In this document: one piece after another, positions 2,839 to 44,252 of the stretch
Layout of the letters: each line of letters starts with the position of its first letter
How positions within the stretch are numbered: position 1 is the first letter of the stretch
Virus record (IMG/VR): IMGVR_UViG_3300045988_166055
Coordinates: 79,505-143,504 of that record
Origin: a virus
Reading direction: 5' to 3' (one strand)
DNA: 64,000 bases
Program-made: the position numbers and the translations under genes
The notes under the pieces: model-generated
Database searches by the model: none
What the model saw: only the letters and a program-made list of their open reading frames with translations
What the model was told of the DNA's origin: nothing

Positions 2839-3957
2839 ATGGACATGAAAAATGTTTCTGTCCCCGAAGTTTATAAGTCCAGTCAGGACTTCAGATTCTT
2901 CCTAGATTGGTTTGAAAAAGCACTAGGTCAGATAAAGTATGACACAGAAAATCTAATTGACTGCTTTGATCCACTAAGATGCAAAGAGGATCTCTTGTGG
3001 TTACTTGGTGACACCATAGGATTCAAATATGATGATAGATTATCAGCAGCATATAACCGTCTTGTTATGCTCTATTTCATGTCTATGATAAAGAACAAGG
3101 GATCTAAAGATGGAGTAACATTAGCTGCGGAAGTCAATCTTGCACAATTTAGTGTAATAAATTACGGGAAAGAAAAGGACATTCTTCAAAACAGACTGGA
3201 AGATACTTCTATTCCTGTAAATGCTGTTTATGTATCTAGCGATGTAGAAAATGGGTTCATTGATATAGTTTATTTTACATCAAACGATGTTCCAATTGAC
3301 GCTTGTATAGAGTATGTAAGGCCATTAGGTATGTACTGCTTCCAGCATTCAGGTGTTAGGTTCGACGGAAGAACAAAAATATCAATTGATGCAAGACTTA
3401 CAAATGAGAATGAGAAAAGTAAACTTTCTAACTTTGTTACTCATGTAGGACATTACAGTAGAAATGATTATGCAAGAATGCAGAAGATGAAAAACGAATA
3501 TCTTCACGAAGTTAACAAAGACGATAAAAGAAGGTACGCATGGTACCGAAATTCTGATGTTGAAGATAGACCAGATGAAGAAATTGATCCAGGGTACAGA
3601 TCTCTTTATTCGCTTCAGATGGCCAACAACGAACACATAGTTAAGTCACTGCTTGAACCTATATTTGGTCTAGGTAAGGAACCGCTCAAGGTAGAAACTA
3701 CTGTACCTGATAATTATGTTATAAGTAATGATGAGCCTCCTTACAATCTAAGATATGATAAAGATAAAGAAGAATCAGTTTCAAAGGATATTTATACAAT
3801 TGATCAAGATCGATCTGAAAATATCCTCAATCCTCGTCCTGCTGTAAGCCCTATAATGTCCGAGCTAGGTTCAGCAGTTTTCTTAGACGATGGAAAGACA
3901 TATCTTGTTAGGGATGAAAATGGAAACATAATTAAGAAAACACTTCCAGAAGAATGA
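2839..3957 (+). CDS. baseplate wedge/tail protein I-like (P2 gpI-like)
   Basis: CFDPLRCKEDLLWLLGDTIGFKYD resembles the gpI motif. Its position immediately after the J-like gene fits. Confidence 0.45.
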   Translation: MDMKNVSVPEVYKSSQDFRFFLDWFEKALGQIKYDTENLIDCFDPLRCKEDLLWLLGDTIGFKYDDRLSAAYNRLVMLYFMSMIKNKGSKDGVTLAAEVNLAQFSVINYGKEKDILQNRLEDTSIPVNAVYVSSDVENGFIDIVYFTSNDVPIDACIEYVRPLGMYCFQHSGVRFDGRTKISIDARLTNENEKSKLSNFVTHVGHYSRNDYARMQKMKNEYLHEVNKDDKRRYAWYRNSDVEDRPDEEIDPGYRSLYSLQMANNEHIVKSLLEPIFGLGKEPLKVETTVPDNYVISNDEPPYNLRYDKDKEESVSKDIYTIDQDRSENILNPRPAVSPIMSELGSAVFLDDGKTYLVRDENGNIIKKTLPEE

Positions 3958-5464: not shown

Positions 5465-5851
5465 GTGATAGATTTGAAGAAGGTAATACATGCTGCTGAA
5501 GAAGAATACAGTCAGATTCTATTTACTCCTTCATCTCTAGTTGATTTCTTAACTCAAGTAGACGAGCTTAAAGATGTCAACATAGGCGTAAATGATGACG
5601 GAGAAAATGTTTCAATCTCTATCGGGGATTCAACATATCAAATAAATCCTAAGTCAGTTACAAATATTGATGTATCTGATGATGATCTAGATCAAGCTTG
5701 TCAAGCGAACGAAAGTAATTATGACGAGCTTGAAGAGTCAGGTTCAATTGAAGTGAATGATTCAGTTGAATCGGGAATCATAAAACAGCTATTAAAGACC
5801 TTAGCAATAGGCGGAATAGTACGTTTAGCTGCTAAGGAATTGAAAAATTGA
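5465..5851 (+). CDS. hypothetical acidic protein
   Basis: GTG start after AAGGAG. It is 128 aa and its stop overlaps the next ORF. Confidence 0.5.
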   Translation: MIDLKKVIHAAEEEYSQILFTPSSLVDFLTQVDELKDVNIGVNDDGENVSISIGDSTYQINPKSVTNIDVSDDDLDQACQANESNYDELEESGSIEVNDSVESGIIKQLLKTLAIGGIVRLAAKELKN

Positions 5852-5862
5852 GGTATTGGAAT

Positions 5863-7248
5863 ATGAAAGATACTAGAAAGAAGATTGTATCTGATATAGA
5901 ATCAGAAAAGCCCAAGAACCCTGTCATTGGAATATTTGAAGGTGAGTGTGCTGATTCAAACATAACAAATGAGAATGGACTAGATATAACTAGACCTGTA
6001 TGGGAAAACATATTTAGTTCTGAATCGTATCAGCAAGCTATTGAACTTGGATGGTACATAGGATTCCTAGGACATCCCGATGATCCTGGATGTATGGACT
6101 TCCGAAATGCTTGTATTGTAATGACAGAAGGACATATAGATGATAACGGAAAAGTATATGGTAAATTTAATCTGATTGATACTCCTGTTGGTAGGACAGT
6201 TAAAACATTCATAGACGCAGGTGTAACATTCGGAATTTCTGTAAGAGGCGCAGGGGACATTGTAAACAATTCTGTTGATCCTGATACATTTGTATTTAGA
6301 GGATTTGACCTTGTATCGTTTCCTGCGTTTCCTGAAAGCATCCCTACTTTTACATCGATTGCAGCTTCTAGCGATGTAGAGTCCCAGAAGAAGTATAAAG
6401 CAATTTGTGCAGCAGTTAAAGAGAATCTACCTAACATTGATAGCTGCGAAGCTATTGATATTCTACAGTGTCAGTTTGCTGAACAGTCTGATGAATATAA
6501 AGCTTTAGAAGACAGAAAGAAAGAAATAAAAGGATGTAATTTAACTGACGATGATTTAAGTGAATGCGATGATGTAGACATTACAAAAGATAAAGTAGAG
6601 TCAATGACAAAACTTTATCTAGAACAGGTAGAAGCAAACAATCATCTGAAGAAAGAAAATCAAATTCTTTCAAGTAAATTAGCTTCAAACGAAATTGAAG
6701 CAAGACGAAAGATTTCTTCTATTAGTAGAATAACAGCAGATCAGATAAAATGTGCAACAGATGCAAAGGATGCTGCAGAGAAAAGATGCAAGCAATTAGT
6801 TGCAGCGTCAATCAGAATGAAAGAGACGATTTCGCAAGAAAGATCAAACAACCTTAAATATCTACAGAAGATAAGCGAAAGCAAGAATATTGTTGATTCT
6901 AAGGATTCTTTAATTTCTTCTCTAAAAACCAGACTCAATGAAACCGTCAATGCTTCTGCTAATGTAGAGAGAAGAACTTCAAACCTTGACGAACAGTTAA
7001 AGCGATCCAAGGCTGAAATAGTAGCTTGCAAAAAGATGCTTAAAGATTATCAGGATGCTTATGCAGAACTGTATTCGCAAGCAGTTGGAGCTGATCTTCA
7101 GAAGGTTAAAGTAACTGAATCAACAAGTGTAGCTTCACTTCGTTCTGCTATTACAAGCTCAATAAGTAGAAAACCATCCTCTATTAGAGAGCCTGAAGAA
7201 ATTGATGTAGATGATTGTTACTTTGACGATGACATGGTAACTATTTAA
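5863..7248 (+). CDS. prohead core protease (T4 gp21-like) fused to a coiled-coil scaffold-like C-terminal half
   Basis: GFLGHPDDPG and GISVRGAGD match the His and Ser motifs (GEL.HP / GVS.RG.G) of gp21-type proteases. The C-terminal 250 aa are heptad-rich. ATG 5863 has a GAGG RBS, and the gene lies just upstream of the capsid gene. Confidence 0.6.
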   Translation: MKDTRKKIVSDIESEKPKNPVIGIFEGECADSNITNENGLDITRPVWENIFSSESYQQAIELGWYIGFLGHPDDPGCMDFRNACIVMTEGHIDDNGKVYGKFNLIDTPVGRTVKTFIDAGVTFGISVRGAGDIVNNSVDPDTFVFRGFDLVSFPAFPESIPTFTSIAASSDVESQKKYKAICAAVKENLPNIDSCEAIDILQCQFAEQSDEYKALEDRKKEIKGCNLTDDDLSECDDVDITKDKVESMTKLYLEQVEANNHLKKENQILSSKLASNEIEARRKISSISRITADQIKCATDAKDAAEKRCKQLVAASIRMKETISQERSNNLKYLQKISESKNIVDSKDSLISSLKTRLNETVNASANVERRTSNLDEQLKRSKAEIVACKKMLKDYQDAYAELYSQAVGADLQKVKVTESTSVASLRSAITSSISRKPSSIREPEEIDVDDCYFDDDMVTI

Positions 7249-11981: not shown

Positions 11982-12548
11982 ATGACAATTGCTTACTTTG
12001 AAGGAAAGAAATACACTACCTGCAAAGATTTAAGAAAAGCTGTATTTGAATGGTGTATTGAAAAAGACATTATTCTTCCTAGCGGATCCTCTATAGTAAA
12101 TCTTTGGAAACACTGGAAGATAACAAACAAATATATAGATGTTTTGTCTAGAATTGATATTGTAGATGATAGAGGTGAATTTAGACCCGATAGAATTAGA
12201 TATGTCATTGATGACAAATTCTTTGACAACACAAGCTCGCTGTATCGATATATTGATTTCTATCACAGAAGAGACATTGAGCGTGTTCGAGAAGAGAACA
12301 TCAATATGTATCTTTTCAATTCTAGATTTGATACAAGCAAAATGAATTTGAAGAACAAGGTTAAAGTAGTATTTCTTCCTAAAATTTATTGCCCTAAATG
12401 TCATAGAAAGATTTTCCTTGGTGAAAATGTATTTCACACAGATAAAATGTCTAACTATTGTTCGTATGACTGTTTACCTGAAGGTGAAAGATATATTCAG
12501 AGAATATTAAGAATGGAGGATTTGCTCTATGCCCCAGCGGTCGTATGA
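11982..12548 (+). CDS. hypothetical protein with C-terminal CxxC...CSxxC zinc finger (paralogous motif)
   Basis: CPKCHRKIFLGENVFHTDKMSNYCSYDCL. Confidence 0.5.
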   Translation: MTIAYFEGKKYTTCKDLRKAVFEWCIEKDIILPSGSSIVNLWKHWKITNKYIDVLSRIDIVDDRGEFRPDRIRYVIDDKFFDNTSSLYRYIDFYHRRDIERVREENINMYLFNSRFDTSKMNLKNKVKVVFLPKIYCPKCHRKIFLGENVFHTDKMSNYCSYDCLPEGERYIQRILRMEDLLYAPAVV

Positions 12549-12714
12549 ATATAAAGGTGTAACAATCTATCTTTATTACTATGGGTGTTTTCTTTTCTAC
12601 GCTGAAAAGAATAAATATGGGCTAAAGCACGGACGGTGGAAATGGATTAGTTTTTGCAATACAGATGAAGCGGAACAATTCATAGACAAGCATATAGATA
12701 CTTTCTGTTGGTGA
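12529..12714 (+). CDS. possible small protein
   Basis: 61-aa ORF that overlaps the previous stop. RBS GGAGGA lies upstream. Confidence 0.3.
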   Translation: MPQRSYEYKGVTIYLYYYGCFLFYAEKNKYGLKHGRWKWISFCNTDEAEQFIDKHIDTFCW

Positions 12715-38536: not shown

Positions 38537-38611
38537 TGTCAATTAGTTTATGAGGTAAAACATTGTAGCTTAAGATACAATAAGTTGGTTCAATTCCAAC
38601 ATTGACAGCCA
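38537..38611 (+). tRNA. non-canonical tRNA-like gene with an 8-nt anticodon loop GCTTAAGA and a 3-nt variable loop
   Basis: Acceptor TGTCAAT/ATTGACA, D-arm GTTT/AAAC, T-arm GTTGG-TTCAATT-CCAAC, G73 and encoded CCA. The anticodon stem TTGTA/TACAA leaves 8 loop nucleotides. The most canonical reading is anticodon UAA on a short-variable-arm body. Confidence 0.5.
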
Positions 38612-38822: not shown

Positions 38823-39045
38823 TGCCTTTTCATTCAGCTGACATTAGATTGTCAAATTGATGAAAGTGAAACCAACTATGCTGGCAGGTTGTCGACGGGT
38901 TGAAGAGCCGTAGAGTCTAAACTATTCTCCTCTATTCTAGAAAGAGTCGGAAAGCTAGGCCCCGTAGTAGCAGCCGAAAAGTATCCTAAAACGATAGGCG
39001 TTAAAAAATGTTTTATAGGTGACAGCCCGGAAAGACGGGCATTCT

Positions 39046-39141
39046 CATCTGCTAGAACAATGGTAGTTCAGATAAGTTTATGCTTATTCCGTGTCTGTTG
39101 GTCAATCAGACATTATCTCGGTTCGAATCCGAGGCAGGTGA
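39046..39141 (+). tRNA. aberrant 96-nt tRNA-like gene A (giant extra arm; loop contains TAT; no encoded CCA)
   Basis: Acceptor CATCTGC/GCAGGTG, D-arm GAAC-AATGGTA-GTTC, T-arm CTCGG-TTCGAAT-CCGAG, A73. The anticodon arm is GATAAG-TTTATG-CTTATT (6 bp stem, 6 nt loop). The 28-nt variable region carries a GTCTG/CAGAC hairpin. Confidence 0.45.
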
Positions 39142-39473
39142 CAAATGTCTACTGGTCACCATCTACATACGACAATCAAAACTGCATAGGAGATGGAATT
39201 GGCAACGGCAGCCATGATAAGTGAAGCGATGTTCGAGTCATCAACCTGATCCTGTTCGACTCAGGCAGGGCATGGTGCAAAACTTATCAAGAGGAACTAA
39301 GTACCTGCCTCGCTTCGGATAGCAAAGAAGGCGTTAGTAGTAATCGAAAAACTACTCGCGGTTACAGGGAGGGAGCGGCGTTATAGGTAAACCTCCTGGG
39401 TGTTCTGCTATCGTGCACCTTAGAAAGGCGAAGCTTTTCAGTTAGGACTAATCCGGCCAGATAGCAAAAATAT
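39142..39473 (+). ncRNA. ORF-free structured spacer (candidate ncRNA)
   Basis: No ORF of 60 aa or more. Two T-arm-like hairpins are present (GATG-TTCGAGT-CATC 39228-42 and CCTG-TTCGACT-CAGG 39251-65), along with further GC-rich hairpins. Confidence 0.3.
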
Positions 39474-41135: not shown

Positions 41136-41390
41136 TTGACTTACAACCACAAAAATTTGTGGCCTGATGTTAAACCTAAAGGATGCAATAAACCGTATAA
41201 TTACTACCCTCGTGGACGAGTAGAGCTAGGAAAGAAAAATTCTATCATATATGTAAATCCTAACTTCGATAAATATGATTTAGCAGAAGTTAGAAAGGAT
41301 TTTGGACTTATCAATGAGCCTAAAGTAGTATTTGATAATTCAGATCATTACAAATGTTATCTAGATGACGGATGGAAGCCAGATAAATAA
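41136..41390 (+). CDS. hypothetical protein (TTG start, weak)
   Basis: 84-aa ORF. A 41-aa ORF (40984-41109) precedes it, so this may be a disrupted gene. Confidence 0.3.
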   Translation: MTYNHKNLWPDVKPKGCNKPYNYYPRGRVELGKKNSIIYVNPNFDKYDLAEVRKDFGLINEPKVVFDNSDHYKCYLDDGWKPDK

Positions 41391-41411
41391 CAATCGTTAT
41401 ATAAAATGTAG
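41391..41411 (+). promoter_or_regulatory. class-1 promoter-like box (long form)
   Basis: CAATCGTTATATAAAATGTAG, 12 nt upstream of tRNA-Leu. Confidence 0.55.
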
Positions 41412-41422
41412 TAATCAAATTT

Positions 41423-41510
41423 GCTGGTGTGGTGGAACTGGTAAGACACTTTAGACTTAAAATCTAACGCATTAAGTTGTGTACGGGTTCGAATCCCGTC
41501 ACCAGCACCA
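41423..41510 (+). tRNA. tRNA-Leu (anticodon UAA)
   Basis: Acceptor GCTGGTG/CACCAGC, loop CTTAAAA, long variable arm, A73, CCA. Confidence 0.9.
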
Positions 41511-41543
41511 TTGTCACAGTCATCTTGATTGTGTGGATTGAAA
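41511..41543 (+). repeat. post-tRNA box, copy 1 (hairpin plus GATTGTGTGGATTGAAA)
   Basis: TTGTCACAGTCATCTTGATTGTGTGGATTGAAA. The 17-mer at 41527-43 is identical to 43048-64. Confidence 0.6.
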
Positions 41544-42539
41544 TAAGGGCATACGGAGAAAGTGGTCGTATAAACGTTGTGGTGATCAAGCAATGCCTGA
41601 AGTATCAACGTGACAGATCGGAGAGACGATCAAAAGCGAGGTTCGATTCAGGAAGGTTACAAAATGTATTCCATTTAGAACCGGGTTACGCTGTCTAAGT
41701 GGTTGCCCCTGATGGTCCGGTACGATTCCGGAGGGAATGATTGCTAGAATCATTCCTAACGCTTAGACCTATCTTTTCTATATAGCTGGCCACTATTCTG
41801 CCAATCGACGGATTGGATGAGGTTTCGACCATCAGATAAACGGCTGAAAATGTATAGGCGTTTACTGCTTAACGAAATGAAGCGGGCTGTTGTTCATCTC
41901 AGGATAAAAAGATGGCGTGCCAGCCGACATTGTTAGCCTATTTCGGTAGGTATTCGGTTAGAATAAGGAATGCTACTTATTCGGGAGCTAAATTGAATGT
42001 GCATCCTTCTGAAGTTGGAGTCTCGAAGATAACGGTTCTGAGAGATAGATGTTAAGTTAGTACTTAGCATTGAGGTTAAACTTGTCAGCTCCTAAAAGTT
42101 AATATCGAGCAAACTCACCATAAAGTGTTCTAGCTGCTAATCTAAAAGAGAATGAGATGATTAGAAGGATTGAGCGAATCTAGATGCTCGTTATTATATT
42201 TGCCATCTGCTGGTCCTACACAGCAGTGAGGATGGTAGGACATCCAATAACCAAGCAATCGGTGGAGATAGCGCCGGACACCTCGCCTGTTGAGGAGGGA
42301 ATTTGAACAAAAAGGTAAGATATGTTCACACCAGAACATAAGGGCATATGGAATGGTGAAAATACTTACTAAACCAATCTGCTAGGTTATCTGAGAGAAT
42401 GTCAGGATTTGAGGCAGATAAGTGATAGAATGCAGTACTCTCATTTGACTTTGAGAAGAACCTTTCATATTATCACTTAATGAGTTCTATGCGTTGCAAA
42501 CACTTCTCTCATTCGGGATAGAAAAGAAGGGTTAGACAT
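41511..42539 (+). ncRNA. candidate large structured ncRNA (about 1.03 kb) between tRNA-Leu and tRNA-Glu
   Basis: No RBS-preceded ORF. Exact long-range helices pair 41709-17 with 41827-35 and 42419-27 with 42471-79. A pseudoknot-type complementarity pairs 42213-19 with 42235-41. There are many local hairpins. Confidence 0.45.
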
Positions 42540-42614
42540 GGCGCCTTGGTCAAGTGGTTAAGACACGGCCCTTTCACGGCTGTAACATGGGTTCGAGTCC
42601 CGTAGGCGTCACCA
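42540..42614 (+). tRNA. tRNA-Glu (anticodon UUC)
   Basis: Acceptor GGCGCCT/AGGCGTC, loop CTTTCAC, CCA. Confidence 0.9.
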
Positions 42615-42705
42615 TCACATCCTATAGGATGTGTTAAGTGTGATATATGGTAACAGATTCCGACCTAAGCGCACGGGTCTTCTAGAGGCCTTCGGAATCG
42701 AATAT

Positions 42706-42781
42706 CCGGGTGTAGCTCAGATGGTAGAGCGCGTGGTTTGGGACCACGATGCCGCTGGTTCGAATCCAGTCACTCGGACCA
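42706..42781 (+). tRNA. tRNA-Pro (anticodon UGG)
   Basis: Acceptor CCGGGTG/CACTCGG, loop TTTGGGA, CCA. Confidence 0.9.
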
Positions 42782-42801: not shown

Positions 42802-42822
42802 TCATCGTTATATAACATGTAG
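42802..42822 (+). promoter_or_regulatory. class-1 promoter-like box (long form)
   Basis: TCATCGTTATATAACATGTAG. Confidence 0.5.
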
Positions 42823-42955: not shown

Positions 42956-43031
42956 GCTGGATTAGCTCAGTTGGCAGAGCGCGTGATTTGTAATCTCGAG
43001 GTCAAGGGTTCGAGTCCCTTATCCAGCTCCA
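42956..43031 (+). tRNA. tRNA-Thr (anticodon UGU)
   Basis: Acceptor GCTGGAT/ATCCAGC, loop TTTGTAA (one U-U mismatch in the stem), CCA. Confidence 0.85.
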
Positions 43032-43064
43032 TTGCCACAATTTATTAGATTGTGTGGATTGAAA
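43032..43064 (+). repeat. post-tRNA box, copy 2
   Basis: TTGCCACAATTTATTAGATTGTGTGGATTGAAA. Confidence 0.6.
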
Positions 43065-43123: not shown

Positions 43124-43219
43124 CCTGCCTTAGCATAACGGTAGTGCAACCGGCCTATACCCGGCATAAGGCTCTAGATTGGGGCAAGATCTCGGTTCGA
43201 ATCCGAGGGGCAGGACCAT
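43124..43219 (+). tRNA. aberrant 96-nt tRNA-like gene B (giant extra arm; loop CCTATAC; CCA encoded)
   Basis: Acceptor CCTGCCT/GGGCAGG, D-arm GCAT-AACGGTA-GTGC, and a T-arm CTCGG-TTCGAAT-CCGAG identical to gene A, with A73. The anticodon stem CCGG/CCGG carries loop CCTATAC. The variable region is 25 nt. Confidence 0.45.
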
Positions 43220-43489: not shown

Positions 43490-44036
43490 GCGCCTATATC
43501 AGTCTAGGTCTTGAAAGGATATAGAGACCAATGAATTATCTTTTTAGAAAGGTGATTTATCTGATGAAAAGAGATCATCAACTCTCGGCGAATTAGAACT
43601 TGACGAATTTGTCTTTTGACAAAAAGAAGCAGCAGGTTCGTCTCTGCGCTTAATCTACTGAACTGCAATGTTGATGTAAGCGGTAATTAGGTTCCCAAAC
43701 CAATTCAGGGAGATTAAGAAAAAGTTTGCTTATTTAGTAGAAAGAGGGTTGGAGGGGCACAGCAAGTAGAATAAAAGGACCTATCCAGAATGCCAGGATT
43801 GACACCATAAAATGCTGTCAATGAGAGCATCAGTATTAGACCACGGTGAAGCGATGTGATGATGATAGGAATTGGGACTATCTAATCTCATCTAATGCCG
43901 ATATACATCTGGTTGTGTAGGTAGGCAACAAATTTGAAAGCTATAACAGGATGTGCTAAGGAGTAGAAGTAATAACCTCTGTCTACTGTGTATTTCTGCT
44001 AAATAAGTTCAACTTTTTTATTAAGGGGTTTGAAAA
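43490..44036 (+). ncRNA. ORF-free structured spacer (about 550 nt), second candidate large ncRNA
   Basis: No ORF of 60 aa or more on either strand in the track. Interleaved helices 43494-500/43518-24 and 43507-11/43525-29 give pseudoknot topology. Hairpins lie at 43608-13/43618-23 and 43798-804/43816-22. Confidence 0.35.
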
Positions 44037-44252
44037 ATGAAAACAATCACTTTTATCTGTTATGATAAATATCCAAAAACAACAAAAAGGTCTCACATTT
44101 TTAAGAAGCGTTTTTCTTCGTTAGCAGATGTTGCTAAATTCTTGAAAGTTTCAAATAAAATCTATTTGCAAAATCCGATGAACGAATTTTCAAAAGACGA
44201 ACTAAGAATTCTTTCAATGAAAGTTCGATCGTTAAATAAAATGAAGGTGTAG
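44037..44252 (+). CDS. hypothetical small basic protein
   Basis: 71 aa with a GGGG RBS-like stretch upstream. Its 3' end overlaps tRNA-Lys by 10 nt. Confidence 0.35.
   Translation: MKTITFICYDKYPKTTKRSHIFKKRFSSLADVAKFLKVSNKIYLQNPMNEFSKDELRILSMKVRSLNKMKV
44226..44246 (+). promoter_or_regulatory. degenerate class-1-like box
   Basis: CGATCGTTAAATAAAATGAAG matches the 41391 box at 17 of 21 positions. It runs into tRNA-Lys, so function is doubtful. Confidence 0.25.

Follow-up and report, generated by a model that had tools for sequence, protein, structure and literature searches.

The window, the whole 64,000-nucleotide (nt) stretch of DNA that was analysed (positions 79,505 to 143,504 of IMG/VR virus record IMGVR_UViG_3300045988_166055), carries an array of 17-18 tRNA genes on its + strand between 37.7 and 45.4 kb, as found with ARAGORN and Rfam. 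Its source is clearly a large uncultured phage, and the genes around the array encode a prohead protease, a tail tip protein, helicases and an NAD-dependent ligase with about 32% identity to the ligases of Bacillus, Listeria and Streptococcus phages. Within the array, tRNA-Leu(UAA) and tRNA-Glu(UUC) are separated by a long spacer, the element studied here (Table 1). The spacer comprises a leader, module A (box A, a variable hairpin and a RAGATH-36-like core), domain D2, a hairpin/linker H, module B and a tail C. A, D2 and B are structured and conserved at the RNA level, have separate distributions and lack coding potential. In an earlier reading of the sequence (the original prediction) the region was described as an ORF-free, heavily base-paired RNA between two tRNAs. 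That it is a non-coding, conserved and structured RNA region on the + strand of a phage tRNA operon is supported; all sequence strings quoted in that reading were found at their positions by direct reading.

Table 1 Features of the spacer and of its surroundings. Positions are those of the window unless a locus is named.
Feature	Position	Strand	Description
Spacer	41511-42539	+	1,029 nt, tRNA-Leu(UAA) on the 5' side, tRNA-Glu(UUC) on the 3' side
Promoter-like box ATCGTTATATAAAATGTA	41393-41410	+	12 nt before tRNA-Leu; presumed start of the transcription unit, putative promoter
ATCGTTATAWNNNATGNA copies	10579, 31181, 38355, 40031, 41393, 42804, 42927, 44228, 61174	+	Motif count
tRNA-Leu(UAA)	41423-41510	+	CCA encoded; ARAGORN; Rfam tRNA 59.5 bits
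Leader	41511-41633	+	Starts with post-tRNA hairpin that also follows tRNA-Thr; rest specific to this phage and one relative (L015/L023)
Box A AAGCGAGGTTCGAT	41634-41647	+	Conserved 5' element of the extended RAGATH-36 unit
Variable hairpin TCAGG...CCTGA	41648-41712	+	Between box A and the T-loop-like hairpin of the core
RAGATH-36-like core	41713-41886	+	Rfam RF03104 match and compensatory changes between clade haplotypes
A-D2 linker	41887-41956	+	Small covarying hairpin GCCUA-UUUC-GGUAGG at about 41936-41950
D2	41957-42102	+	Uncatalogued domain 3' of most RAGATH-36 cores; covariance model R2
Hairpin/linker H	42103-42198	+	Clade-specific; 97-100% identical in all members, absent elsewhere
Module B	42199-42370	+	Family of about 170 nt absent from Rfam; covariance model R1
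B P2	42207-12/42221-26
B L2/L3 kissing loop	42213-19/42235-41		GUCCUAC/GUAGGAC
B P3	42230-33/42242-45
B P4a	42250-52/42261-63
B P5	42281-84/42295-98		Conserved loop GCCYGUUGAG
B P6	42304-08/42324-28
B loop-tail pseudoknot	42314-19/42365-70		GGUAAG/CUUACU; P6 loop with tail after CCAGAACAUAAGGGCAUAUGGAAUGGU
B invariant 3' block CCAGAACAUAAGGGCAUAUGGAAUGGU	42331-57
Module C	42371-42539	+	Clade-specific 3' tail abutting tRNA-Glu; includes stable hairpin 42419-42479
tRNA-Glu(UUC)	42540-42614	+	ARAGORN, Rfam
CUA / 4-nt-anticodon tRNAs	L027, L034, L036 (6725-6801, 8818-8894); L097 3054-3130		In related phages

The spacer is without coding potential. Its longest stop-to-stop frame on either strand is 79 amino acids (82 +/- 20 in shuffled sequences) and each frame holds at least 17 stops, which bears out the earlier description of the region as free of open reading frames (ORFs). 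The minimum free energy (MFE) of 41634-42539 gives a z-score of -3.93 for the + strand, where none of 20 shuffles folds equally well, and of -2.66 for the - strand. The folding excess is uneven along the spacer; the leader (z -0.16), the A-D2 linker (z 0.03), H (z 0.06) and the last 58 nt (42482-42539, z +1.0) fold at chance level.

The comparison set consisted of about 150 viral and metagenome loci (L numbers). Homologues were collected with exact-match patterns, which biases the positions that look invariant; the sequences are related and not phylogenetically independent, and covariance-model E-values are rough. A motif search with the RAGATH-36 core and searches with neighbouring genes yielded a clade of phage contigs, about a dozen in number and closely related, and three metagenome contigs, all of which have the whole element; nucleotide homology extends from 41710 through to tRNA-Glu. 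The 5' 200 nt of the element are replaced in most relatives, and some of them have an insertion of several kb, or of a tRNA-Gly, 3' of tRNA-Leu and 5' of the element. Each segment of the mosaic clade alignment has two or three haplotypes, and compensatory changes are seen at 19 base pairs. None of the modules is present in the methyltransferase-linked distant relatives (L027-L036, 60-65% identity), a blastn search of GenBank phage records with settings for distant matches gave matches to the tRNAs only, and no paper in the library that was searched mentions RAGATH-36 or a conserved block of A or B.

Known RNA families were sought with Rfam 15, in the whole window at the gathering score and in a 1.4-kb segment (41350-42720) at E<=10 with permissive filters. 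At the gathering score the window yields tRNAs only. The original prediction had raised membership of GOLLD or ROOL, for which no covariance-model match was obtained at either setting; the two models are also without a match at the gathering score in 26 related loci. The HEARO, group I and II intron, RNase P and tmRNA models give no genuine match to the 1.4 kb at E<=10, the match to permuted tmRNA being at chance level (15 bits, E 1.6) and overlapping the 3' end of tRNA-Leu. The T-box model has no match in the spacer region at E<=10 and known ribozyme models match no part of the spacer. The sole meaningful Rfam match in the spacer is a sub-threshold match to RAGATH-36 (RF03104).

With 44.7 bits, this match falls short of the gathering score (70); its E-value is 1.9e-7 when 1.4 kb are searched and 1.3e-6 for 9 kb. 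It is full-length (model positions 1-128), with four non-canonical pairs and one enlarged insert, of 55 nt in the long stem compared with 20 in the model. The core is made up of the hairpin CCGG-UACGAUU-CCGG, a second hairpin, the conserved CUAACGCUUAG, the long stem and a 3' hairpin with an ACGAAA loop. All consensus helices are present, as are all the single-stranded blocks of RAGATH-36 (UGG, GGUACGAUUCC, CUAACGCUUAG, GAAA, GCG and the ACGAAA loop), and compensatory changes between the clade haplotypes occur in the long stem and the hairpins. The gathering score is missed by the clade relatives L003, L013 and L017 as well as by the window, and genuine RAGATH-36 copies (73-136 bits) are found in loci recovered with the same motif. 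Box A and D2 both accompany the window core as they do genuine members, a flank criterion set here and not by Rfam. Judged from these sequence comparisons, 41713-41886 is a divergent RAGATH-36 RNA with flanking elements unrecorded in Rfam. The natural RAGATH-36 unit appears to measure about 300-470 nt, and the 128-position Rfam model omits box A and D2.

Six helices had been proposed in the original prediction: four show compensatory changes, one is refuted and one, in C, is invariant. CCGG/CCGG (41717-20/41728-31) and GGAATGATT/AATCATTCC (41734-42/41748-56) belong to the RAGATH-36 consensus, and compensatory changes in relatives are seen in the latter and in CCAATC/GATTGG (41801-06/41811-16). 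The helix thought to close a junction around these hairpins, CTGATGGTC/GACCATCAG (41709-17/41827-35), does not hold, since the second clade haplotype has GGCCGCCGT as its 3' arm with the 5' arm unchanged. GACC of this 3' arm is part of a local covarying UUCG hairpin (GGU-UUCG-ACC to GGC-UUCG-GCC).

Upstream of the core, GCGAGGTTC is found at most 130 nt away in 73 of 74 distinct viral or metagenome units, the window copy being at 41636. AAGCG of box A can pair with CGCTT at 41760-41764, a stretch within the conserved CUAACGCUUAG; in the MFE fold, 41634-38 and 41760-64 are paired. Both sides of this candidate pairing are invariant, partly from how the loci were found, and an alternative ACGC/GCGU pairing is equally possible. 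The segment between box A and the core varies from 17 to 102 nt. All 51 distinct segments are closed by a helix of 4 bp or more, with 44 different stems among them; helices of 5 bp or more are present in 69% of the segments compared with 29% of shuffles. Downstream of the core, the A-D2 linker is only about 25 nt long in distant loci, and pair 240/253 of its hairpin changes from GC to CG in A2. About 100 nt 5' of box A, L007, L008, L009, L020 and L002 have a further conserved and apparently covarying extension (for example, CGCCGC..GGCGGCG versus CCGAA..UUCGG), and in these loci the RAGATH-36-containing RNA may be longer still.

In D2, a hairpin whose loop (GAAUGCUA) is conserved is accompanied by a conserved junction (AUGUGCAUCCUU), nested helices and GAGGUUAAAC; the domain has no Rfam match. 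Model R2 scores 78.2 bits on the window (E 1e-13) and has 78 matches in other loci. In the 28 modelled pairs the fraction of paired cells is 88%, and all but one of the pairs (27) are changed on both sides; the covariation score is 0.487, compared with 0.161 for shuffled and at most 0.108 for slid alignments; G-U pairs are common in the covarying helices. Alignments made with covariance models (R1 and R2) lean towards the modelled helices, from which the kissing loop of B is exempt. RNAalifold on a MAFFT alignment of D2 missed the long-range helices owing to register shifts, and realignment with the covariance model was used instead.

The core is followed by D2 in 55 distinct units, window included, and a few D2 copies lie away from RAGATH-36. 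The 3' neighbour of these units is a tRNA in 15, the ribosome-binding site and start codon of unrelated ORFs in 23 and neither in 17. Because the neighbours vary, a gene-specific riboswitch role is unlikely, and the RAGATH-36+D2 unit is independent of its context. At other loci the 5' end of a tRNA directly adjoins the 3' end of D2, which fits RNase P setting the end of D2.

Module B was recovered with a 15-mer from its 3' part, which found unrelated viral contigs sharing about 170 nt with 42199-42370; a second pattern led to 45 loci. Model R1 scores 149 bits on the window (E 5e-51) and finds 45 other copies (46 matches in all). Rfam has no family that matches B, either in the window and 12 other loci or, for an isolated copy, at E<=10. 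The 25 counted pairs have 98.3% of their cells paired and 18 of them are changed on both sides (covariation score 0.528, versus 0.135 shuffled and at most 0.06 slid). The family is defined here by P2, P3, P5, the kissing loop, the pseudoknot and the blocks GGAC..GCCCGUUGAG and CCAGAACAUAAGGGCAUAUGGAAUGG; the window copy has all of these, with one substitution in the P5 loop (GCCUGUUGAG). Blocks of 27 nt and 33 nt are invariant across unrelated phages. For P1, both UGCC/GGCA and GCCA/UGGY are possible and neither covaries.

Two tertiary pairings cross-link the module. The hairpin CTGCTG/CAGCAG recognised in the original prediction (P2) covaries in 43 distinct homologues, and the proposed pairing of its loop GTCCTAC with GTAGGAC also stands, with six of six pairs covarying. 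Its geometry, however, is that of a kissing loop between two hairpins and not of an H-type pseudoknot, because GTAGGAC sits in the loop of its own hairpin, GGAT 42230-33/ATCC 42242-45. Since the R1 model leaves out the kissing loop, the alignment is not biased towards it; its cells are 97% paired, and elsewhere the kissing loop is formed by CUGCAC/GUGCAG, GCUGUCA/UGACAGC or CUGACA/UGUCAG. In the loop-tail pseudoknot the duplex of a loop with its own tail has a mean energy of -6.8 kcal/mol, compared with -3.0 +/- 2.4 kcal/mol for foreign tails, and the own tail is in the best 10% for 24 of 35 loops. A test based on the longest complementary run was too noisy for this pseudoknot and was replaced by these duplex energies.

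The B family is so far known almost only from tRNA arrays of rumen and gut phages. In a set of 185,579 genomes, one per species, it occurs in only three short contigs of metagenome-assembled genomes, and B is therefore essentially a phage element. A tRNA on the same strand lies within 1.5 kb of 44 of the 45 distinct copies. Of 31 copies outside the clade, 13 have Glu(UUC) as the next tRNA 3' of B, the background being 6.7% (binomial p 4e-8, not corrected for shared ancestry), and shared ancestry could explain part of this enrichment. Two B-carrying loci have further matches to known RNAs: L101 an HDV-like one (CPEB3 model, 6260-6347) 170 nt 3' of B, and the phage contig L064 one to tmRNA and one to a group I intron (12249-12700, 3037-3355).

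The linkage of B to tRNAs, and the differing upstream neighbours of the copies that precede tRNA-Glu(UUC), would be in keeping with B, together with C, being a cis-acting 5' leader of this tRNA that serves its maturation, stability or timing. This explanation is regarded as improbable, as a different tRNA (Asn, Ile, Met, Leu, Tyr, Lys, Cys or another) follows more than half of the B copies, the distance from B to tRNA-Glu ranges from 41 to 995 nt and, in L097, B and C are followed by tRNA-Gln 280 nt away. The linkage could also be mere inherited gene order. A T-box-like sensing of tRNA by B, through pairing of a 3' UGGY with the NCCA end, was rejected since there is no covariation with the discriminator base; the UGGC variants of B (L138, L140, L155 and L158) have neighbouring tRNAs that end in ACCA or UCCA.

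The remaining parts of the spacer are less well defined. The sequence 41485-41543, which spans the start of the leader, is 80% identical to 43006-43064, and a hairpin-plus-tail CACAnTn..GATTGTGTGGATTGAAA is found at 41515-41543 and 43036-43064. It follows tRNA-Leu in the one case and tRNA-Thr in the other and may signal 3' processing or termination. In place of the window's unique leader, other clade members have a mini AATGCT..GTGCATCC module; in most of the clade (L022, L021, L026, L024, L013, L017 and L003) this site, about 150 nt 5' of the core, is taken by a short mini D2-like module, AATGCTRC..GTGCATCCTT..GGAGG, and L012 has two such motifs in tandem. An internal duplication of the leader and the 3' domain, both of which have ATAAGGGCATAYGGA, was considered and rejected (local alignment 41, versus 36 +/- 5 in shuffles). 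Of two weak matches in H, one terminator-like and one sigma-70-like, neither exceeds chance. C is restricted to the clade and L097, where it occurs with B, and varies too little for covariation; its hairpin TAAGTGATA/TATCACTTA (42419-27/42471-79), the invariant helix of the original prediction, is very stable (z -3.95), and on its pairing covariation is neutral.

Decayed mobile elements, pseudogenes or a tRNA spacer with chance hairpins could also give a leader, linker, H and last 58 nt that fold like shuffles, a leader and 5' insert that are replaced in close relatives, and a mosaic, recombining clade. That the spacer as a whole is such a non-functional region is nevertheless hardly credible in view of the dozens of compensatory changes that highly diverged loci show in A, D2 and B, the invariant blocks of B and the lack of coding remnants. 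For A, D2 and B this explanation is largely refuted by covariation, but the leader, H and parts of C may be of this kind.

The modules occur independently of one another. A and B are adjacent in this clade only, and B is found alone between tRNAs in unrelated viral contigs. The trend is exemplified by L044 and L067, in which the order is tRNA-Leu(UAA), B, tRNA-Glu(UUC), without A, and by the mosaic relative L097, in which B and C, 94% identical to those of the window, lie between a methyltransferase gene and tRNA-Gln without A, D2 or H. The idea of a new large phage RNA put forward in the original prediction thus survives in part: B is absent from Rfam and the flanks of RAGATH-36 are unrecorded, but the spacer is not one homogeneous 1,029-nt structure.

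A rival explanation is that 41634-42539 forms one giant multi-domain RNA of about 0.9 kb, a single unit like GOLLD or ROOL and possibly an RNA-only multimer, in which RAGATH-36+D2 and B are domains. All clade members share a contiguous, collinear block of 830 nt, H is nearly identical across the clade, and no promoter box or significant terminator lies inside; the size, the tRNA neighbourhood and the phage origin are as in GOLLD and ROOL (PMC5737381). RNAalifold on the clade alignment also proposed long-range pairs, between the 5' and 3' ends and between GGUCCGGU (41714-21) and GCGCCGGAC (42271-79). These pairs were rejected, having no compensatory support, and the second would break the conserved T-loop-like hairpin of RAGATH-36. 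Together with the occurrence of A+D2 and of B each alone in many other phages, the movement of B+C without A in L097 and the chance-level folding of the linkers, this makes a single giant RNA unlikely. Still more speculative, and rather doubtful at present, is the proposal that B is a new functional RNA class (catalytic, ligand-binding or tRNA-binding) tied to tRNA arrays, especially tRNA-Glu(UUC), and fused in this clade with the extended RAGATH-36 into a single-particle RNA of about 0.9 kb, a third giant phage type beside GOLLD and ROOL.

Transcription of the spacer was considered from the signals around it. The original prediction had derived co-transcription with the flanking tRNAs from a class-1 box at 41391. 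The repeated motif is real (41393-41410), as ATCGTTATAWNNNATGNA has nine + strand copies in the window compared with 0.11 expected, most of them directly 5' of tRNAs or small ORFs; its function as a promoter is presumed. No copy is present between 41411 and 42803, hence none within the spacer, and the next, at 42804, is past tRNA-Pro. A scan of the spacer for terminators gave none above chance. Because there is no internal promoter box and no above-chance terminator, the spacer is probably transcribed together with tRNA-Leu, tRNA-Glu and tRNA-Pro and freed by the tRNA-processing enzymes. Such a release step would be expected from the established action of RNase P and RNase Z. The 91-nt spacer between tRNA-Glu and tRNA-Pro (42615-42705) has two stable hairpins (z -1.98) and is 98% conserved in the clade.

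The spacer is probably best explained as a co-transcribed array of separate structured non-coding RNA (ncRNA) modules that would be released by tRNA processing, stable and trans-acting. Transcription would run from the box at 41393 through tRNA-Leu, the spacer, tRNA-Glu and tRNA-Pro, with the modules in the order box A, variable hairpin and RAGATH-36 core, then D2, H, B and C. Host enzymes would cut after tRNA-Leu (a 3' endonuclease) and at the 5' end of tRNA-Glu, where cleavage by RNase P would set the 3' end of the spacer RNA, and these cuts would free an RNA of up to 1,029 nt. The compact, tertiary-locked domains A+D2 and B may then persist as stable RNAs and act in trans during infection.

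Several points weigh against this array of separate modules. The roughly 12 clade genomes seen do not differ in the order A-D2-H-B-C, and the modules could thus work together in the clade; H and C are conserved in it without explanation. The pairings of box A and of P1 in B involve invariant bases only, the bias of covariance-model alignments noted above favours the modelled helices (the kissing loop again exempt), and counts of changes overstate independent events owing to sequence kinship. The sequence would fit one RNA, several RNAs or a rapidly degraded spacer alike.

Other parts of the array and of related arrays have unusual features. A tRNA-like gene with an irregular anticodon loop (38537-38611; ARAGORN 'tRNA-???' with anticodon 'ta'; Rfam tRNA 44 bits) is conserved in the relatives L003, L011, L015, L019 and L097. 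The tRNA-Ile(UAU) at 43124-43218 is unusually long (95 nt), and its T-arm 20-mer ATCTCGGTTCGAATCCGAGG is repeated exactly at 39115-39134, in a GC-rich, ORF-poor gap (38823-39473); this copy could be a tRNA fragment or another RNA element. A further ORF-poor gap of about 750 nt (43490-44242) is about 90% conserved in L097, and Rfam finds nothing in it at E<=1. Related phages have a tRNA with a CUA anticodon ('tRNA-Pyl'-like, an amber suppressor) and tRNAs with 4-nt anticodons (tttt, cagg), which is suggestive of recoding or frameshift suppression among these phages.

RAGATH-36 is one of the known RNAs closest to the spacer. The likeness lies in the UACGAUU-loop hairpin, the second hairpin, CUAACGCUUAG, the long stem with GAAA, the ACGAAA-loop 3' hairpin, box A and D2; the difference is in the sub-gathering score, the 55-nt insert, the setting in a tRNA operon and the further RNA modules 3' of it. 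Self-cleaving ribozymes and other RAGATH motifs (twister-sister/RAGATH-4, RAGATH-16, pistol and HDV-like) share loci with RAGATH-36 or B. Twister-sister and RAGATH-16 lie about 2.5 kb 5' of RAGATH-36 in L007/L008/L009/L020, and L016 has a pistol ribozyme in its tRNA array (5521-5590). B shares with several ribozyme classes a compact build, a double cross-link by tertiary pairings and long invariant junction sequences; it differs in that the spacer matches no known ribozyme model. The tRNA cluster of phage T4 yields small stable non-tRNA RNAs, species 1 and 2, that are released by tRNA processing; as non-tRNA RNAs in a phage tRNA operon they may be comparable to the spacer modules.

GOLLD and ROOL are large RNAs that lie by tRNA genes, often in phages or prophages (PMC5737381), and PMC12286853 describes kissing-loop-type tertiary contacts in both. 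The spacer resembles them as a large structured ncRNA by phage tRNA genes, in gut and rumen habitats and probably co-transcribed with tRNAs; it thus has the context of GOLLD, which alone does not confer membership. It differs in having no model match even at E<=10 and in consisting of independently occurring modules and unstructured linkers.

These findings indicate that RAGATH-36 is the core of a much longer conserved RNA, with a 5' box, a variable hairpin and the roughly 140-nt D2, and that the Rfam model could be extended. B is an uncatalogued family with very strong covariation, two tertiary pairings and invariant blocks of 27-33 nt, and it is small enough for crystallography, cryo-electron microscopy and ribozyme or ligand screens. 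Phage tRNA arrays are known to carry GOLLD and ROOL, large orphan RNAs for whose biology there is still no explanation. The shuffling of modules and their concatenation between tRNAs suggests how giant 'ornate' RNAs might arise in evolution.

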